This document shows positions 11,277 through 62,601 of a DNA stretch of 64,000 nt, piece after piece. This stretch comes from a virus (lineage: Duplodnaviria; Caudoviricetes), in the IMG/VR virus record IMGVR_UViG_3300021399_000143, positions 11,743 to 75,742 of that record; one strand, 5' to 3'. Below the pieces are notes generated by a model, which saw nothing but the letters and a program-made list of their open reading frames with translations, was not told where the DNA came from and made no database searches. Position 1 is the first letter of the stretch, and every line of letters begins with the position of its first letter. A program made the translations under genes and the position numbers.

Positions 11277-14200
11277 TCAATTGACCTCAACAACCTTTGC
11301 GTTCGCTGAATTGTCTTTCTTCTCAATTTCAGAAGTAGCCAACGTGTGCATTTCGTCCATCTTCTTCATCACAAGCTGCTCTTTCACGAATACAACTTGA
11401 TTCACAAGCGAACCCAACAACTTTTGCAATTCTGATTGTTTGTCAGAATTGTTCTCAAGCTTCAATTCAATTATTTTGTTCTTTAACTGGTCCCTGGTGG
11501 AAATAGTATAAGGATACCCATCTCCTTCCCCCTCAATGGTTATCGGTTCTTCCAATTCAAGATCATATCTATTGACTTCATCGTAAGCATCCTTTGTCAA
11601 TTCAGCTTCGCTTCCCCAATACCTGACGACCACATCCTCACGAATGGTACGTTGCTTTGCTGTGTCAAATTCGGACTTCCTGTCCATGACAAGTTCCCTG
11701 TCCTCGGTCTTTACCTCATTTGTTCCATCGTCCTTGGAATCCTTGTCGAACTTGACGACTTTCACCTTGATTATGGAAGAGAACAACTCATATAGGGTAT
11801 TCCCTTGGAGCATCTTGTCAATCTTGGTGTAGTCCTTTATGTCATCGTCGGAAACTTGGAAGAGGTTTGTGTGATTGATGTCAAATTGCTTGTCAGACAA
11901 GGCAGAATCTACGTCAAGTTGAAGCATACGCAACTTTCTCGTAATCTTGTACACTGTCTCAAAGTCGTCCCAAGAACAATCCTTGAACCAAAGTATGAGA
12001 CGTTTCATCTCGCCAACTATGTAGTCAAGAACGACAACTCTGAAGAACCAATCTGGCTTTCTCAACACCCCATGCTCGTCAAACTTCTCCAATTCCCTCA
12101 ACTTGTCCTTGAAGTACCTTTCCTTCTCTTGCGAAGTCAAGTATTGAAGCTTGTCCTTTTCGTAGGAGTTCATTATCTTCTCGTTCCAAACTTGCTGGAA
12201 TATTCTGAATCCAACATCCAACTTCACAACAGACACAACTGAATCTTGCTCGTCGAACGCCTGTTGGATGATGTCAGTGTCAATCTGTATGATTTCGTCG
12301 GATATGTCCTCGCGCTTCTTCGCAAGCGTGTTTATGCTTCTGGTCAAATGCACCTTGTCCTCAAGCAATTCCTCCCTCTTGTCAAGGTTGAATTGCGTGG
12401 AAATCTGAGACTCCACATTGGACAACTTGCGCCTCTCTGACTTCAATTGCGAATCAACCTGACGAAGTTCCCTCATCTTGGATTGGTACTTGTTCCTGAG
12501 CATCTTTCTATAGTCAGGCTTGAAGGTGGTATATAGTTCATCCTTTGGATCTTCTCTGTACCATAGGTTGTTCTCTGGGGCGTTGTACAACTTGGCAAGA
12601 AACGCGCTAATCTCCTTAACTGTCGATTGAGCCTTGCGTATGGTGGCAACTGCACTCTCAGAGTTCACTGCTTGGTCTCCAATGTCAGTCCTCAACTTGC
12701 CAAGTTTCTTGTTGTAGGTGGCTTCAGCAAACCTGTTTGTGAAATCGTCAAAGTCCTTGGAGTCCAAGATGTCTCCCATTCTCATGGTCTCAATTCCACG
12801 CTTTGACATCGCAGTAGAAGACTATTGAGAAGTTCCCTGACCATTTCCACCGCCAGTTGTCGATCTTAGTGCATTCGTTCCAGCATCAAAGGTCTTCTTC
12901 ACCAAAGGAGCCGACATGTCTATCACATTGTTGTTGTCAAGAGCACCTGGATCTCCAGCACTGGTTGCAGAATCAAATGTACCAGAATCATAACCCGTCA
13001 TCTTGACATAGTACTGGAATACTGCTGTATTCATGTTGTTGGCGATGCAACTCTTGAAAGTTATGGTAAGCTTGTATGCGTCAGGAAGCACTTCACCATT
13101 TTCTCTATGACCCAACCCTTCTGGATTCTGAATGTTTGCGGCATCGCCTCTATCAACACCAATTCTGAGGTTCGCGCCACCATCCTTCACGCCATTTCCC
13201 TTGAAGAAGTCGTTTGGTGTCATTCTATTCAAGCCAATCGGATATAGCTTGAAGTCGCCAGTACACATGAGATGACGCTGACCAGTTGGCAACCACACCT
13301 CGTACAACGCGCCAGGAAAGGCCAATATCGCCTTTTGGATGGAACGATTGTTGTGTATGATGGTATTGGCGCACATGTAGTTGTTTCGCGCCTTTACCAC
13401 ATTGTCGTTGATGAGAACGAGTTCAAAGGTAAAAGATGCCGGTTGCCCTCCATCTGGTCCCTTCCAAGATGGTGCTGGAAACAGATTGGCAACTGTTCCC
13501 TATGAACCAGAAGCTGCTGTTGCAATGTTCGCAACCATTTCTGCGCCCTGTTTAATCATATCCTTTATCTTCCCAACCAAGGAATCACGTTCTCCCCATT
13601 CTGACTCATTACTGGCCTCGTTTATCACAGTTGAACCACTCTGCACGATATATGGAAATATGTAGGTGTTTCCATATACCTTTTGCCTCAAGCAGAAGTA
13701 GAGAATATATGGAATGTCAATCACCATTGGCTTCAATGGGATGTTGGTGAATATATCCTTCACCTTGTCCATGAAGCTGTTTCCTGTGGACTTCGCGTCT
13801 CCAGCACCTTGGCTGGACTTCTCTGTAACAGTGGTATCTGCTTGCGTGTCGTCCTTTGGACTATCCTTTGCGCCCTGAACCATCCCAGCTATCTTCTTCA
13901 CGAAGTCAATCATCGTGCTTGCAGTGTTCTTGAAGAAATACTCCTTGACCACCACAAATGGCACGTTGTTCAACATCGTGTCCATCGAACGGATTGCCTC
14001 GAAAGACGATGGCGTTATTGCAATCTATGGCCAGGTCTTTTCTGCGTCGGATGGTCTGAACGAATACATCGTCCAACCACCGGTTTCAGGGCCATATGGG
14101 TTGAACAACTGCTGATCTCCATCGTGCATCATTGCTGTAAGGCCAGTCACAACCTCTGCATCTATGGCTTTCCACCCAATCGTCCTGTTCCTGTCCTTCG

Positions 14201-19381: not shown

Positions 19382-21772
19382 TCAATCTTCCTTGCGCTTG
19401 ATTACAAGGTTCTGGCTCCACTCCTTGCCATCCAACCCAAGCGCATCAAGCATGGTTGGGAAATCATAGGCAAAGGCATCGTTGATGCTTGTCAGATTCT
19501 TGATTTCCATATCCTCCAACATCATCATGAGAGTGTCATCATCAATCAATTCGGATTCCAGAAGATCTCTGAAGTTCTCTTGACCCTGACCCCAAAGGAG
19601 TTCAAGCAATTTCCAGGGATCAGTAATCTCCTGCTCGATTGTCATCTCGCAAATTGGCTTCTTGTTCTCGCCAAAGTCAAGTATCTTGGTCTCACCATCC
19701 TGCTTGTACTTCTTCTCGCCATCCTTCACCTCATCAGGTGGAGTCTCGTCCTTCTCCTGAACCAACTCAACCTCGTCCTTGGCATATTCACCAGGATCCC
19801 TGTCGGCGAACGTCACAGTGTATGGAAGTCCCTTCTTTTCCTTGTCCACAGATGAAATCTCACCAACCCATCCCTTTGAGGCAAGTCCTTTCCCAACAAC
19901 CTTCACCTTGTCGCCAACCTTGAGCAAGTCATCGTCAGATTCAAGTGCCACTGGCTTCTCTGGATCAACGAAAGAACCATCCTTCTTGAACTGCTCGACA
20001 TCGAGATCAAGGGCAGAAACAATCCACCAGAAATCCCGGATAGCGTCGTTCAACTCCACCTTCGTTGGGGATTCCTCTCCAAACCGAGAGTCAATCGCGT
20101 CCATTATCTCCTCTTCAGTGCGAACGTGAGAGTTGATGAGGTTTGTGAGGTTCTTGTTCGCGTCAGGGTCGTCAAGGAGGTCAAGCACGTCCCAAACGTC
20201 GTTTGCGTCAACCATGACCGTGGCTTCCTTCATAGTAACCTGCTGACCAATCTCCTTCAAACCATCGTCAGACTCAAGCGCAAATGGAACAAACTTCAGG
20301 TCTTCAGCTCTAACAATGCCAACAACCTCCTGTCCAAACTTCGCAAAGTCATCCTTGGTCTGAATGTGCTTCCTCTCAAACGCCCAAGAATTGTCGCTCT
20401 TGTCGAAGAGGATATACTGATCATACCCATCCCTCTTTGCAGTTTTCTTGGCGTTTGCAATCACAATCTTCTGGCCGGCCTCTCCAAGAGTATCATCATC
20501 TTCGGATTCCATATATTCCTCTGAATCAGACTCACCAACTTCCATTCCAATCATATCATCCATGGAAACCCAATCAGAGTCCCTTCTCTCGTTTGTTATG
20601 TTATCTTTCATAATGCTATTGTCATTCATGTCGTATTTTCCACAAACAACCTTGAACATGGCTCCATCAGAGTCACCAAGCCTCGTTTGATCGTTGTACA
20701 CATCCACCTTGCCATCGAAGTCATCTCCATTCCACATCTGAACAGTGATGTCTTCATCCACTGGAACCACATCGAAGTCCCATCCTGACTTTGAAACCAC
20801 TTCACCAACCACTTCCTTGGCCACATCAACAATGTCGGCGACAGAAGTCGCTGGCTCATTCCCCAATTGCCCCGTATTCTTCACGAACACATCGAATTCC
20901 ACTATGTCCATGTCCTTCACGGCGCGCCAATCGTACACCTCCATTTCATCGGTATTGGTACTCCCAACCAACTTGACAAGTTCCTCTTTCGTCAACGCTT
21001 TCGCTTTCATGCTTGTATCCTCCTCATTTCCACTTTCGCAATATGGATTCACGAAGTTCACAATGTCCTTCACCTTGTTGGCAATCTCCCCAATATGCTG
21101 AACAGCAAACTCAAAGTCCTTGTTCATCTCGTCCTCGTCTGCCTTGTCAGCTTCCTCGTAGTCTTCGTTGCATTTCCTGACCTTATCCATATAGTATTCA
21201 TTTACCCACACAGACTTTCCACCTTCCGGGGGAAACAGCTCAAATTCGTCCAAATTGACGCTTCCAACACGCCAGTCCCTATGACGCTCACCCGTGTCAG
21301 GATCATCCCAATCAACAATGTCCCCCCTTCCAAACCTAATGGAATTGTTTGGATTCCGGCTTTCAGAAACAACATCTCCCTCTTCAGATGAATCATCCCC
21401 ACTCTTCATTATCTCAGCCATCAAATCGTCAATCTTTCCATTGTATTCAGATAATCTGTCCTTTGGCATCTTTCCATCAGTCAACTTGCCAAGCACCTCA
21501 AAGAACGCCCTCCACCAATTATAGAGCTTTTTCTTGACATCTTGGTTCTCGTCCTTGGATGCGCAAAGAACCTGATTGAATGTTTCATCCGGAGGAACAC
21601 CAATCGTCTGCCCCAACGAGTTCAGGGCATCCATCAACTTGAACTGAAAGCCCCTCGGCGTGTCCCGCAATGCGTCAAACATCTATGCAAACTCAAGAGA
21701 ATTGTCCAATGTCTTGAGTTGAAGTATGCTCTTTATCGAGCCATCTATGGTTTCGGTGAATTTCGTCTTCAT
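19382..21772 (-). CDS. 796 aa acidic multi-domain late protein, putative internal head polyprotein
   Basis: true start 21772 (MKTKFTE-T), single TAG at codon 30; repeated ALESDD/xES junctions; SH3/KOW-like modules (GRGDIVDW, KVGDKVKV). Confidence 0.7.
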
Positions 21773-33003: not shown

Positions 33004-33741
33004 ATGGCAAATTACAACTTGAGTCAAGCAATTGGAATGTTCAACGAGGATCAGGTGCGCACATAGCACATGTACGCAATCGAGTTCTTCAGTGGAATAA
33101 AGACGATTGACGACAGATTGATGAGAATGCAGGTATATGGCAACTCCTTCACGCTTCCAGAAAGGACGGTGAACTTTGAGGATTTGCAGTATAGGGCGTA
33201 CAAGATTCCAATTCCCACGACGATTGACATGGCGCAGGATCACAGCGTCACAGTATATGCTGACGTTCGTGGCGACTTGCGCAAGGCGATGCTTGACTGG
33301 CAGGCAGCTTGCATCAACCCAGCCATCACTCAGGGTTCGTTCTTCGAGTCCAACAGGCGTCCAACGAGGATTGGCAACGGCGACGACAACCAGCCATACA
33401 TCAAGATTGACTTGCTTGCTCCTGACTTTCAGACGCCAGTTGAGACGACGATGATTTACGGCACGAGGGTGACGAAGGTCGGTGGCTTGGAACTCTCCAA
33501 CACTGCTGGTGGCATTTCCACCTTCTCCGTTGACTTCAAGAGCGTATATTGGGAGCAGCTTGCTGGCGCATCTGCACCATACAACTCCGACGCGAACAGG
33601 TACTTCAACCTCGGCGCACCCGGAAGCGAATGGAGTGGAACAGCAACAGTAGACACAGTTGCTGGTGGTTCAAGCCCAACTCCTGGTGGTTCTCCAGATT
33701 GGACGAATGCTCAGGGTGGTTCTGGTGGCTATGTAAGCTAA
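33004..33741 (+). CDS. gp19: tail tube protein, gp19-like
   Basis: true start 33004, TAG at codon 21; FTLPERTV, YKIPIPT, WQAACIN, FSVDFKSVYWE tube-fold pattern. Confidence 0.75.
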
Positions 33742-35101: not shown

Positions 35102-35413
35102 ATGAACAAAGACGAAGAAAGAAAAAGCGACATCAAGAGGATGAAACTTCTTGCCAAGGCTATACGTTTCAACCATGAAAAGACTGGGAAACTCAATGTC
35201 ATGGTCGATCCAGACTACGAGATTGAGAACTACCAAACTGGCATGACCCAACTCACCCTTCCCCATAGATTTGGCATGTACAAGACCCCAACCAAGGATG
35301 TTCCAAAGACAACTGAGATTGAACTTGAAGATCCATAGGACAACTTCATTGATTCGACATCCTCAAGGTTGGCAAAGAACCCCAACCACAAGGTCAGGGG
35401 CATATTCGGTTGA
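35102..35413 (+). CDS. hypothetical late protein, 103 aa
   Basis: 1 TAG (35336), TGA stop. Confidence 0.6.
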
Positions 35414-35438
35414 TTCTGATTCCAGATTTTCGTATAAT
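35410..35438 (+). promoter_or_regulatory. sigma70-like promoter of gp55
   Basis: TTGATT-17-TATAAT. Confidence 0.7.
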
Positions 35439-35462
35439 TAAGGCATAGGCGTGTAAAGGGCG

Positions 35463-35473
35463 TATTTACCATA
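35463..35473 (-). promoter_or_regulatory. antisense late-promoter-like motif TATGGTAAATA
   Basis: in the gp55 leader, facing the gp55 promoter. Confidence 0.5.
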
Positions 35474-35527
35474 ACTTCAGCCAAAGGACATGGTGAAACT
35501 CCCAATAGCACAAAGGAAACATAAACC

Positions 35528-36178
35528 ATGCCAAGAAGGAAAAGCGAATCACTGGAGGAATTCCAGAAGAAGAACCTGGAGAAATCCAGATTGAGACAAA
35601 AATAGAGAGCAGAGTAGGAGAAGCTCCATCCACGCCCCAAGCGCAAGCCATTCGTAAACAACTCTGACTTGTTGAACGAATTGAAGAAGTGGCGGGATTC
35701 CAGCAAAGACCCCGATAAGAGACAGCCAAGCGAGTATCTTGGGAAGATGATATTGGACATCGCCACGCATTACATGGGACACCCAGACTACGTGCGATAC
35801 TCCAAGGAAATCAAGGAGGACATCATAGGGCAGTCTTGCATCAGATGCATCAACGCATTGCCAAGATACAACTTCAGCTTCACAAATCCATTTGCGTACT
35901 TCACAACAATCTGTTGGTCGTGCGCAATGACATACTTGAAGGACTACTACAAGGACTTGAACTTCAAGCGACAATTGGTGAAGGAGAACTTGGAACGTGC
36001 GATAGATGAACTTCCATCAATAAACATAGACAAGTCCTACATGAACTTCCTGAAGACGATGATTGGCTCAGAGCAAATCACGGAGGCGGACGCCAAGTTC
36101 CTCAAGAGGCAGAAAGATTCAATCATCTCTGAGATAAGAAGCGAGAAAGCCAACAAGGATAGAGACTACGATGTCTGA
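35528..36178 (+). CDS. gp55: late transcription sigma factor, T4 gp55-like, 216 aa
   Basis: FVNNSDLLNELKKW, YLGKMILDIA, KEDII, NPFAYFTTICW; start 35528 with AAAGGAAA SD; TAGs at codons 26 and 30. Confidence 0.88.
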
Positions 36179-49491: not shown

Positions 49492-49716
49492 TCACTTCTG
49501 AGGCGCAACTACCCTATACCAAAGAAGCGAATTGGTCTTGCAGTGGAAATCCACACCAACCTTTTGGGCAATTTCCGCAGTCTTTTCGGTAAGCCTTGTG
49601 GTGGTTACGCGATCAACTCCAGCTATTACGCACACCAAGGCAAGCGCAACCGTAAGCACGATGTTCATGCGCAAGTTGTCCTTCTTCAGTTTCTTGATTT
49701 CGTCTTCAATGTTCAT
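49492..49716 (-). CDS. small single-TM protein
   Basis: AAGGAG SD; NIVLTVALALVCVIAGV. Confidence 0.65.
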   Translation of the reverse strand: MNIEDEIKKLKKDNLRMNIVLTVALALVCVIAGVDRVTTTRLTEKTAEIAQKVGVDFHCKTNSLLWYRVVAPQK

Positions 49717-51631
49717 TGTTTGTTTCTCCTTCGTCCTAATCCCGCACTATGCGTGAAATGTTATCCTGCTTCTGAACCACCATCATCTGGGTCTCTGGCA
49801 TGTCCTTGAACATGGTCTCGACCTCTCCACGGTGGGAGATGATGGAGATGTTCGTGTTCTCCTTCTGAGAAAGTTGAAGCAATATGCCCAGCAACTTCTG
49901 AATCGACACACTGTCCAACGCCCTGTCAACAACCTCGTCTATAATCATTATGTTCATGCAGACGTTGAACCTGGAGATGAGGAACTTTCTAAACGCCAAT
50001 TGGGACGATATGATGAGCTTCATCTGCTCTCCAAGCGAAAGGTTGGGGAAATCCAACTCTCCACCACTGGACTGAATCTCGTAGTCGTTCATGTCGCTTG
50101 TGAGATTGCAGGTGAAATTGACGCAAAGCTCCGAAAGATTGGCGTTTATCATTGCGTTGATTGAGGATACAACCCGTGATATGATGTTCTTCTTGATTGC
50201 GTCAGGTGAGACTATCTCAGAACCAACCTTGAGCAAGCAAAGGTGCATTGCCTCGTCCTTAAGTTGCTTCTCCACTTCCTCAATGTCCCTCAACGTCTGC
50301 TTATACACGTCATATGAAGGTATCTTGTCCTCGTTCTCCATTGAATCCATCAAGTCAGCAACCTTGCGCTCCAAGTCCTTTATGGACTTCAACAATTGGG
50401 ACTTCTGGAACTGAAGGTTGCGTTCCTCAACTTGCGTCTCAGAAAGCTCGCCAATCTTCGCCAATTCCTCTGACTTGAGCTTGTCGTCATAGACCTTCAC
50501 CTTGGCTAGTTGCTGACTACAATTCGCAATCTTCTCGTTCTCTTGGTCTATTTGGGAGTTCAACTTCTCTATCTCGTCCCTATACACATCCAACGAATAG
50601 AACTTGTTGACAACTTGCTTGCAATCGTCGCAAATCATTCCGAGGACTTCCTTGTGCTTGTTCAATTCCCTCTGATGGTGCGAGATTGTCGTGTTGTAGT
50701 TGTTTATCTCAATCTTCGCATTGGTCATCACGTCATTGCACTTGGAAATGACTTCATCAAGCTTCATCTTGTTCTCGCGTATCTTCGCCAACGCCTCCTC
50801 TATGACCTTCCTCTGCTCCTCGATCCCCTTGAACTTTGGACCGAAGCCTTGCACCTTCTCTTCAAGAACGGACTTCTCCTTGTTCGTCTCTGCAATCTGG
50901 TCGTTGACGCTGGCCTTGTACCTCTCAATGCTTTCCTCGCAAACCTCCTTGGTCTTGGCATACTTCATCTGATTCACCTTGAGGTTCTGAAGCACCATGT
51001 TCTTGGACTTCATGTCGTCGCCCATCATCTTGTACATCTTGGAATAGATGGAAGTGTCGAACAAAGTCTCCACGAAATCCCTCTTCTGCCCGGCATTCAA
51101 CTTGAAGAAGTTGTACTTGTCGTCAACAGAAAGCATGACCAGGCGCTGATACATCTCGAAGTTCATGAACAGAACATTGTCCTCAATGTACTTCTGTGTA
51201 TTCGCTGACGAAGACTTGGATATGTCCTTCCAATCACCATCTTTCAAGATAAGCAATTGAAGCACAACTGTAGAAGAACCCTTCTGAATCCCACGAATTA
51301 TCTTCCAATGCTTCACGTCAGTATTTGATATGATTGAATCAACCTCAACGGACACAAACATCTTCCAATTGCCCCTCAATTCGTCCGCATACTTGTTCTT
51401 CAAGTTGGAATTGTGTATCTTGCCATACAACTGACCAAAGAGCGAATACATGAGGGCATGAGACAAAGCTGACTTTCCTGAGCCATTTGAGGTGTTGCCC
51501 AAAGTGGTCTCAGTGTCCTTGTTCTTACCCTTGATTAGCACAAGCCTGTTCGTATTGTCAAAATCCCATTCCTCATCCTGAAACGACAGGAAGTTGTGTA
51601 TGTCAATCTTCTTTACCTTTACTCTGACCAT
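49706..51631 (-). CDS. gp46: recombination endonuclease ATPase subunit (gp46/SbcC/Rad50)
   Basis: GSGKS Walker A, CDDC zinc hook, LSLGE signature, IIDEV Walker B; only TAG is at 49736, 10 codons before TGA. Confidence 0.92.
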
Positions 51632-60612: not shown

Positions 60613-62601
60613 TCAGAACTCCGTAAGGACATTATATGCTTCCTCTCCATCGTCCCATTCCTCGCCATTTGCGAAGTCGAAGGTCTCGTTTACGGTGAAG
60701 AATTCACGGTTGCTTCCACGTCCCCATTGCCTGTTTCCATAGAACAACTCATCGTCCGGGATGTCTCTTTCAGTGGCAGATAACCTCACAACCTTGTGTT
60801 CCTCCAGATTGCCAAGTTGGGAAGCTATTCCCTTGTTCGCTTCAAGGTTCAAGGTCTCTTCCAAGAGACTTTGGTCGAAGGGACTTGTGTATATGACCTT
60901 CTCTGGGAGAACTCGATCCATCTTCGTCTTGAACGCCTTTACCACGGAATAGTGTTGGGTTATGACGTCAGCGAACAACAAGTACATTCCCCATATCCAA
61001 GTAAGCATATAGTCGTCGTGGCATTTGTCCTTTGCAGCGAACGTTATGGAGTTTGAGGTGTTCTTCCTCACAAACGTTCCCATTTCATTGACAAGCAATT
61101 CGTCGGGGATTGAGATGTCTATTTCCTCTGTTGTGATAAGCTCGTTGAGGAACATGCAAGCCTCAAGTTTGGTCTTGTTCTTGGACTTCACGCCATAGGT
61201 TATCTCGCCATATTTCCCTGTTGGAGAGATAGCCTGCTCGTAGAACATTCTGTCCTGGGGATAGTGGTAGGTGTCCAACATAATATCCACGAATCCAGAG
61301 CCAACGCCATTGTTCTCCACGATGAATGGTGGAAACGCATAGAGCTTCAAGAACTCGTATGTGGCATATCCAAAATCCACCAAAGTTGCCTTGGAGCAGG
61401 ACATACGAGCCACCAAGGAAATGTGCTTGACGTCAGTGACATCCCAAATGTTGGAGACAGACGAGTCGTTTCCTGTTCCCTCAGAAATATCCCCAGATGA
61501 TGCATATGTCCTTGATGGGTCAAATGGCTTCCAGAAGTTTGCGGTTATCTCCTTGTCCGGGTTCTTTGATAGGTTCAATTGAGCTGGCTTTGGATAGTTC
61601 TTCAAGTTCATTCTGAAATGCTCTATGAAGTCAGAAGGAACAAGCGAAGCGTCACCACTGGACTTGAACTCGCACTCAAACTCCTGCATCCACCTGTTGA
61701 TGCCAATCGTAGCAATCTGCTGACGTTTCCATTCCTCGTCTCTCCCTGGGACATCATACCAAAGGAAACGAAACGCTTTCCAATTCTCGTCTGACTCAAC
61801 ATTGGGGTCAGTTGCCTACTACCAAGTATCAAAGAAGAAATTGTCAGAAGTTCCATTTGGGGTGGAAACCATTATTGCCTTTGAGTCTTTTGACGACGAC
61901 AGAATAGGAAACACAGAAGCCATGAACTCGTCTGCAACATGCTTTGGAATGAATGCGGCCTCATCAAGCACGAGCAAATTACTTGAGAAACCACGACAGC
62001 CACTTGAACCAGTAGCAAAGCAACGTATGATGGAATTGTTCTCAAATTCAATGCACTTCTTGTTATATGTGGTAACGCCAATCTTTATTGCTGATGGACA
62101 ATATTCATATGCCAGACGAATACGGTCCATGATTTCAATGGCAATGTCAAGTTTGTTACCACAAATCATCACTCGCTTGTCTGGATGATACATAGCATAC
62201 CAAAGTATGAATACTGTGTATATCGTCGTTTTTCCAACCTACCTACTGGCACACACAAGTGCCCGATTGTTCTCCTATATGAACTTCAACAATTCGGCTT
62301 GCTTTGGGTATGGGTCAAGAGTCACCAATCCATCTTTAAGAGAAACAATTTTGAAGTAATTTCGACAGAAATACAATATGTCCTTCTTGCATCTTCTGAT
62401 TTCTTTGGCGCGTCTCTTGAACTCCTCTGGAGTCAGAATCTCCTTCTCACCGGCTTTCTTGATTGAAGCAAGCTCTTCTGTTCCATTGAGCTTTTGCTTC
62501 AACTATGCAGACGCAAGTTGCGGACCCTACTTCTCCTTGGTTTGTCCCAGGTCAAGGTCAGCAAACTTGTCAATCTCCACTTTGCCTATATCTTTGCTCA
62601 T
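60613..62601 (-). CDS. terL: terminase large subunit (T4 gp17-like), 662 aa
   Basis: SR(TAG=Q)VGKTT Walker A, LVLDEAAFI Walker B, VSTPNG, QEFECEF, ENNGVG nuclease motif; 6 TAGs. Confidence 0.95.

Follow-up and report, generated by a model that had tools for sequence, protein, structure and literature searches.

Two amber codons ahead of the core of a gp55-type late sigma factor gene: a probable suppression-dependent gate in a recoded ruminant gut phage

Results

We analysed a 64,000-nucleotide stretch of Caudoviricetes DNA (positions 11,743 to 75,742 of IMG/VR record IMGVR_UViG_3300021399_000143; hereafter the window, numbered from its first letter), in which a gene for a gp55-type late sigma factor contains two in-frame TAG (amber) codons near its 5' end. 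The gene occupies 35528..36178 on the + strand, from an ATG at 35528 to a TGA at 36176-36178, and comprises 216 codons when TAG is read as Gln. Its product begins with an N-terminal extension (residues 1-36; 35528..35635, +) that is found neither in T4 gp55 nor in the gp55 of T4-like cyanophages. This is followed by a sigma region-2-like core (residues 37-172; 35636..36043, +) that aligned in phmmer to T4 gp55 residues 6-145. Both TAGs lie within the extension, at codon 26 (35603..35605, +) and codon 30 (35615..35617, +), and precede an FVNNSDLL block at codons 42-49. An earlier note on this DNA, made from the letters alone, had placed the two codons at 35603 and 35615 ahead of that block, and these coordinates proved correct. 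Translation with table 11 likewise agreed with its statement that the host code would yield a peptide of only 25 residues.

Searches with the full-length protein identified the gene product as a gp55-type late sigma factor by both sequence homology and a sigma region-2-like fold. PHROGs returned phrog_234, 'late sigma transcription factor' (E 7.7e-22, gp55 residues 38-189), and phmmer matched chain F of PDB 7D7C, which is T4 gp55 in the RNA polymerase open complex (E 2e-6). An AlphaFold (AF2) model (pLDDT 86) predicted a helix over residues 9-33 of the extension, running through the TAG sites. The top Foldseek match of this model was again 7D7C_F (probability 1.0, TM(target) 0.73, RMSD 1.7 A over 112 columns), with sigma region-2 domains next. 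Pfam gave a single sub-threshold, irrelevant match. Annotated records of cultured standard-code phages also matched gp55 (492 records), with alignments starting mostly from about residue 36. The C-terminal tails of the orthologues are acidic and carry an aromatic residue; the family of the gp45 clamp (PF02916) gave no match, and control genomes gave none either. The gene itself sits in a block of late tail and structural genes. In two relatives, IS605 OrfB/TnpB (Cas12f-like) genes occur within a few kb of gp55 (L075 17152-18381 and L080 1-1125).

The start of the gene is well defined by comparison. Across 16 distinct orthologues (74-94% identity), ATG 35528 and residues 1-23 were near-invariant while synonymous sites varied freely. 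Residues 1-23 form the most conserved stretch of gp55, and the first TAG usually comes directly after them, at codons 24-26. The Shine-Dalgarno (SD) sequence AAAGGAAAC stands 7-10 nt 5' of the ATG (35512..35520, +) and is kept, as ACAGGAAAC or AAAGGAAAC, in 16/16 orthologues, which bears out the good SD that had been described there. In the window gene, the interval from the TAG at codon 30 to F42 is free of in-frame ATG, GTG and TTG codons. The first in-frame starts past the TAGs are the TTGs of codons 48 and 49 (35669..35674, +), inside FVNNSDLL and without an SD; the earlier note was right on those two points but misplaced the codons, the actual TTGs being at 35669 and 35672 and not at 35666. 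Initiation at codon 48 would drop FVNNSD, which aligns to T4 gp55 residues 10-15. The gp55 proteins that appear 'full-length' in the database translate solely with TAG read as Gln, and gene callers set to code 11 report products of 165-195 aa for many relatives.

At least one TAG falls within codons 13-33 in 16/16 distinct orthologues, at sites that shift between genomes. Besides codons 26 and 30 in the window, TAG occupies codon 24 in L001; codons 24 and 26 in L002, L004, L070 and L072; codons 24, 26 and 33 in L003; codon 25 in L005, L082 and L083; codon 26 in L067; codons 24 and 30 in L071 and L074; codons 24 and 28 in L075; codons 25 and 30 in L076; and codons 13, 24, 26 and 30 in L080. The column aligned with codon 26 of the window holds TAG in 8/16 and CAG in 5/16 orthologues, that of codon 30 TAG in 5/16 and CAG in 9/16, and the TAG columns of gp55 generally align to Gln. 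A second gp55 lineage, 35% identical and represented by 254 database proteins on contigs of up to 396 kb, differs in its extension, which is rich in Lys and Gln, and TAGs were present in 5/5 of its sampled members, again at shifting sites. A pre-core TAG is thus retained in 21/21 examined relatives from two lineages. As judged from these alignments, it is the region bearing TAG that is conserved and not the exact site; conservation among relatives, which the earlier note had made a touchstone of its proposal, holds in the former sense and fails in the latter.

The density of TAG in this patch is unusual. It accounts for 28/48 Gln-type codons there (58%) vs 9/88 (10%) elsewhere in gp55 (Fisher 7e-9), and its share of Gln codons genome-wide, in TAG-bearing genes, is 13-15%. 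Sequence context is not the cause of the excess, because context-matched Gln codons stay at 13-16% TAG: the share was 13% whatever Lys, Arg or Glu flanks the codon, and 15-16% before A or G. The four-fold sites of gp55 are near saturation (median p-distance 0.59), and common ancestry therefore cannot account for the retention of TAG. We also simulated neutral TAG/CAR turnover on a gene tree built without the patch. At turnover rates of at least 2x the all-site rate, the probability that 16/16 orthologues keep at least one TAG was <= 2e-4, also when the root was given two TAGs. The alignments and simulations indicate that selection probably retains at least one TAG in the extension while its site drifts. 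Neither alignment A1 nor P0042 yielded a new gp55 locus in viral contigs. A comparison of DNA contigs at the locus, itself a weak test, gave no change at the two TAGs among the differences listed, and metatranscriptome run X20 contained one 184-nt contig within the gp55 core, which, as a contig from an RNA library, is no proof of transcription.

The nearest relatives of the window phage are complete genomes of 414-434 kb with direct terminal repeats. Three of these were used (G001, G002 and G003), the nearest, G001, with its full sequence, and k-mer enrichment in G001 upstream regions defined three promoter families. M2 (sigma70, early) reads TTGACTT-N17-TGnTATACTGT, or TTGACTT-N17-TATACTGT, with an A/T-rich upstream element, and TAG occurs in 0/29 of the co-oriented genes behind it. 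Within the long M2 consensus are an A/T tract resembling an UP element and a transcribed leader that is conserved (agGTGTT..gaGGA). M3 (middle-like) consists of GTATAATTG with a weak TTTA alone around -35; it is ~15-fold enriched upstream of G001 genes, 47 of its 49 intergenic copies are co-oriented with the next gene, and 6/47 of these genes contain TAG. M1 (late) is a box reading aATGGTAAATA, with core ATGGTAAATA and no -35, placed ~29 nt 5' of the start codon of structural genes; 46 of 48 intergenic copies are co-oriented with the next gene, and 30/46 of these genes contain TAG. Within the window, M3 sites stand before the methyltransferase, exonuclease, helicase, gp46, gp55 and terminase genes, mostly a TAG-free DNA-metabolism class, and M1 sites stand before TAG-rich genes.

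The gp55 gene belongs to the M3 class. Its -10 element, GTATAATTA (35432..35440, +; TATAAT at 35433-35438), conforms to the GTATAATT(G) class found throughout the lineage and is kept in every relative with upstream sequence. The earlier note had described a sigma70-type promoter, TTGATT-17-TATAAT. The TATAAT half is present and conserved; the TTGATT hexamer (35410..35415, +) does lie 17 nt 5' of TATAAT in the window but is replaced by unrelated sequence in relatives and is conserved in no clade. On this comparison the gp55 promoter is -10-dominated, of the class GTATAATTG. We also considered the leader sequence TATTTACC as a forward -35 element and rejected it, there being no conserved -10 at 16-18 nt beyond.

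The gp55 leader also contains a late box in inverted orientation (35463..35472, -), an exact match to the consensus ATGGTAAATA that faces back over the gp55 -10. It is conserved in ~14/16 relatives, and no open reading frame (ORF) lies downstream of it. Such an arrangement is rare, since in G001 2/48 intergenic late boxes alone do not face a co-oriented gene. The second gp55 lineage has a late-like box in the forward orientation. A terminator-like hairpin (35380..35399, -) lies ~60 nt downstream of the inverted box; because it shares sequence with the 3' end of the upstream gene, its conservation is uninformative. The box could give rise to a short gp55-dependent antisense RNA, or to promoter occlusion, and so to negative feedback on gp55.

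All three complete relatives encode a candidate suppressor, tRNA(CUA), at a single syntenic locus preceded by GTATAATTGAA. The G001 gene (410487-410576; L060/L091) is 90 nt long and of type II, with a long variable arm, a canonical T-loop and an encoded CCA. Well away from the 36-tRNA cluster of that genome, it has its own AGTATAATTGAA promoter ~50 nt upstream; its 5' neighbours are a 2147-codon gene with 12 TAGs, then a terminator hairpin. The G003 gene (268611-268687; L039 1112-1188) is 77 nt long, of type I, and stands behind an identical GTATAATTGAATGTGACGA element. The G002 gene (L092 1366-1444, -), 79 nt long and behind GTATAATTGAAG, has an odd 8-nt T-loop and was missed by ARAGORN; its plain minimum-free-energy fold is a cloverleaf with the anticodon loop CUCUAAC. 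The G002 and G003 genes emerged from synteny and folding; at the DNA level, the G001 tRNA(CUA) had no similarity match in G002, G003 or G000. With three quite different tRNA bodies at one syntenic site, the suppressor locus looks like an exchangeable cassette. By their upstream elements, gp55 and tRNA(CUA) are assigned to one promoter class in the three complete relatives. In the G001 tRNA cluster, ARAGORN called tRNA genes with long introns at 319935-320337 (315 nt) and 323090-323304 (121 nt).

The source record of the window is a 75.7 kb linear fragment, 18% complete and 45% GC, with one tRNA only (Arg-TCT). The data directly support a phage of roughly 420 kb from the ruminant gut that reads TAG as Gln late in infection; the locus was found in bovine and sheep gut and rumen metagenomes. 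Treating TAG as sense raised coding density from 0.881 to 0.930 and mean ORF length from 201 to 275 aa, and many fragments became joined as long ORFs containing 3-9 TAGs. In 72 orthologue pairs, 27/91 substituted TAG positions aligned to Gln (+7 facing gaps), against a background of 3%, and there was no enrichment of Ser, Leu or Tyr opposite TAG. A reading of TAG as Ser, Leu or Tyr, prompted by the long variable arm of the G001 suppressor, therefore has no support from the orthologue alignments and was dropped.

As in other code-15 phages, the recoded codons are concentrated in late and structural genes. In-frame TAGs number 6 in the terminase, 1 and 5 in two tail-tube homologues and 3-9 in large unknown proteins; there are none in the Dda helicase, the Mre11-like exonuclease, the ATPase or the methyltransferase. 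Two late-box genes of the window have a single TAG, at codon 30 of a 796-codon gene (19382-21772, -) and at codon 21 of a tail-tube homologue (33004-33741, +). Release factor family PF00472, the optional accessory RF2 of some code-15 clades, had no match in G000-G003, and 10 bacterial controls matched.

Several features bear on how the host reads TAG. About 14 otherwise TAG-free G001 genes end in TAG and then have TAA or TGA within 0-7 codons. The gp46/SbcC-like gene of the window (49706-51631, -) has its sole TAG at codon 632 of 641, near-terminal, and in its G001 counterpart (159339-161234) a second stop comes immediately after the TAG. Early and middle genes apparently still terminate at TAG, the second stop serving as a safeguard once suppression sets in. 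Because these backed-up TAG stops occur in otherwise TAG-free genes, the host probably terminates at TAG. A host that already reads TAG as Gln, which the earlier note had named as fatal to a gate, is unlikely on three grounds: genes behind strong sigma70 promoters are TAG-free (0/29), TAG stops are backed up, and three complete relatives encode their own tRNA(CUA). Transfer-messenger RNA (tmRNA) genes lie within the tRNA clusters of G002 (L037 6538-6870) and G003 (L038 8761-9096), with tags GNDYRMAA and GNDYSMAA, respectively; phage tmRNAs may be relevant when ribosomes stall at unsuppressed TAGs or are released from them.

The earlier note had regarded gp55 as the sole gene of its kind in the window, a claim that the terminase large subunit (60613-62601, -) contradicts. 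A GTATAATT element precedes the start of this gene by 27 nt, and codons 25 and 33 are TAG. The element also stands close upstream of the terminase gene in G001. We compared the terminase loci of the relatives (L093, L094 and L095) with that of the window. The N-terminus is conserved as protein in the four genomes, each with 2-5 TAGs in the first ~60 codons at shifting sites: codons 26 and 28 in G001, 20 and 32 in G002, and about 21, 26, 37, 40 and 58 in G003. The seven TAG-bearing M3-class genes of G001 have their first TAG at codons 7, 15, 19, 24, 26, 42 and 53. In absolute codons the first TAG comes earlier in GTATAATT-class than in late-box genes (p 0.003-0.007), the difference in relative position not being significant. 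These observations are suggestive of a general rule of early TAGs in M3-class genes. G001 as a whole has 50 TAGs in first-35-codon regions vs 28-32 expected, a figure that start over-extension could inflate and that has no parallel excess in G000; it was not used as evidence.

Discussion

Taken as a whole, these results are best explained, in our view and with moderate confidence, by amber gating of gp55. The gate on gp55 is probably real and selected, and the promoter pattern suggests a role in timing. In the mechanism that we propose, M3 transcription would supply the suppressor tRNA and gp55 mRNA together. As long as TAG acts as a stop, ribosomes would release the 25-residue peptide and no sigma factor would be made. 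Once the suppressor tRNA is made, charged and competing with host RF1, full-length gp55 could accumulate and direct RNA polymerase to the late boxes ATGGTAAATA before the TAG-rich structural genes; we infer recognition of these boxes by gp55. The circuit would amount to a feed-forward AND gate, in which one promoter class delivers the tRNA and gp55 mRNA, both are required for gp55 protein, and that protein permits late transcription. Only cells capable of translating late mRNAs would then produce them. With two TAGs in series, gp55 output would depend steeply on suppression efficiency, making the threshold sharper.

A number of observations weigh against this interpretation or limit it. ARAGORN found no suppressor tRNA in the window or on the 75.7 kb contig, which covers only 18% of the genome, and the long variable arm of the G001 tRNA(CUA) is unusual for a Gln acceptor. 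The early, middle and late order of M2, M3 and M1, on which the timing depends, is assigned to the promoter classes by likeness to T4. Because the tRNA and gp55 share a promoter class, the gate is possibly a licence or threshold more than a long delay. In addition, we found no + strand terminator between the upstream late operon and gp55, so gp55 mRNA can also be reached by late read-through. Some relatives have an in-frame ATG or TTG soon after the TAGs (codon 27 in L082, codon 30 in L002 and codon 27 in L005) and might make a core-complete gp55 without suppression. Finally, neutral simulations with slow turnover and a two-TAG ancestor gave P = 0.02 at 1x and 0.24 at 0.5x the all-site rate. 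The proposal in the earlier note that late transcription is gated by amber suppression is therefore upheld in part: the N-terminal TAGs are kept and TAG use follows promoter class, but the timing is deduced, the promoter class is common to tRNA and gp55, late read-through offers a second route to the mRNA, and neither the -35 hexamer nor the uniqueness of gp55 stood up.

Among other explanations, a dosage throttle without a timer survives best, although we consider it unlikely. Incomplete suppression would permanently lower gp55 yield and so set sigma stoichiometry, and TAGs ahead of the core would leave a harmless peptide and not a truncated sigma that poisons RNA polymerase. The clustering of TAGs ahead of the core in 21/21 relatives fits this idea, as does the shared promoter class, since the temporal offset between tRNA and gp55 may be small. 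The genomes also have no phage release factor to relieve competition from RF1. However, the core is not depleted of TAG, its share (10%) being close to the genome average, and a weaker SD or promoter would be a simpler throttle. A throttle is moreover compatible with the gate, as both rest on the same suppression dependence.

It is more doubtful still that the TAGs are a neutral by-product, tolerated as Gln codons in a gp55 that is translated mostly late, within a Gln-rich patch that inherited ancestral TAGs. The position of gp55 among late tail genes, within reach of their late promoter, and the slow-turnover simulations (P up to 0.24) speak for this possibility. A patch with 58% TAG, compared with 13-16% in context-matched Gln codons, does not, and neither do synonymous sites near saturation. 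The sites have turned over repeatedly (13, 24, 25, 26, 28, 30, 33), yet a lineage with zero TAGs was never seen, and the second lineage, with a different extension, has the same pattern.

We find it very improbable that the gene has two products, a functional peptide of 23-25 residues (MPRRKSESLEEFQKKNLEKS...) under the host code and the full-length sigma after the switch. The conservation of residues 1-23, best in the protein and usually followed at once by the first TAG at codons 24-26, would suit such a peptide, but the first TAG lies anywhere from codon 13 to 26, making peptide length variable. The extension of the second lineage is unrelated, the peptide has no known homologue or function, and the modelled helix runs on through the TAG sites. 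Equally hard to credit is a downstream start (TTG 35669/35672 or later) with the TAG stretch as untranslated leader, which the 165-195 aa code-11 products and the onset of T4 gp55 homology at residue 37 might suggest: the extension is conserved as protein, with many synonymous changes and invariant residues, the SD precedes ATG 35528 in all relatives and no TTG, and a codon-48 start loses FVNNSD. A functional gp55 from TTG 35669, which the earlier note had listed as evidence that would count against a gate, is thus unlikely.

Returning to amber gating, the terminase data allow a wider, more tentative reading, to which we give somewhat less than an even chance. In TAG-recoded huge phages, N-terminal amber clusters may be a 'licence tag', favoured by selection and reusable, for genes whose transcription precedes the late phase but whose proteins must be held back (gp55 and terminase). 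The code switch, with the tRNA in the same promoter class, would then act as a checkpoint for the late programme, and the inverted late box would add feedback.

Recoding of stop codons in phages is currently viewed as locking the translation of structural and lysis proteins directly. If amber gating of gp55 is correct, the change of code would be an input to the transcription cascade. Such gating would explain how a two-code phage avoids a flood of truncated structural proteins, and it would be a naturally occurring feed-forward AND gate whose components are a tRNA and a sigma factor. Clusters of TAG near the N-termini of regulators could also serve as a simple, testable marker for the temporal programmes of uncultured recoded phages. 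On the practical side, callers using code 11 shorten these sigma factors, to 165-195 aa.

The general idea of recoding as a gate is known; a gate on the late sigma factor, with comparative signs of selection and a promoter class shared with the suppressor tRNA, appears to be new. In the literature searched, we found no paper linking gp55 with recoded stop codons and none describing such a gate on the master late regulator, in keeping with the earlier note.

Expression of gene 55 in T4 precedes that of the late genes, and gp55 here is similar in having its own non-late promoter. T4 gp55 (7D7C/7D7D), which acts with gp33 and the gp45 clamp, shares a homologous region-2-like core in both sequence and fold, but the window protein adds a 36-residue helical extension with amber codons in a genome that reads TAG as Gln. 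The T4 late box TATAAATA and the box ATGGTAAATA are both -10-only elements containing TAAATA and differ at the 5' end. The gp55 of RsoM2USA, a standard-code jumbo phage (MG752970.1, RsoM2USA_369), likewise has an extension, of ~30 residues, ahead of KRK-YxxN-xxLL, where the core starts; that extension, in a protein only 27% identical, has neither TAG nor a Gln-rich patch.

In the proposal of Borges et al., recoding acts as a gate on translating late and lysis genes; neither their text nor that of a 2026 jumbo-phage survey contains the word 'sigma'. Our phage agrees with the Borges et al. model in reading TAG as Gln, in the tRNA(CUA) encoded by its complete relatives, in standard-code replication genes, in in-frame TAGs in structural genes and in the idea that late proteins are blocked before the code change. 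The model differs in where the block falls, which there is on the structural and lysis genes themselves and here would be on the transcription factor for the late genes, with recoded codons tracking three promoter classes. The logic also recalls amber mutants with supE or supF hosts and engineered UAG gates, in which no full-length protein is made without the suppressor tRNA and two UAGs sharpen the dependence. In contrast to those classical and engineered systems, the gp55 case would be a natural one, evolutionarily maintained and acting on the phage's own master regulator.

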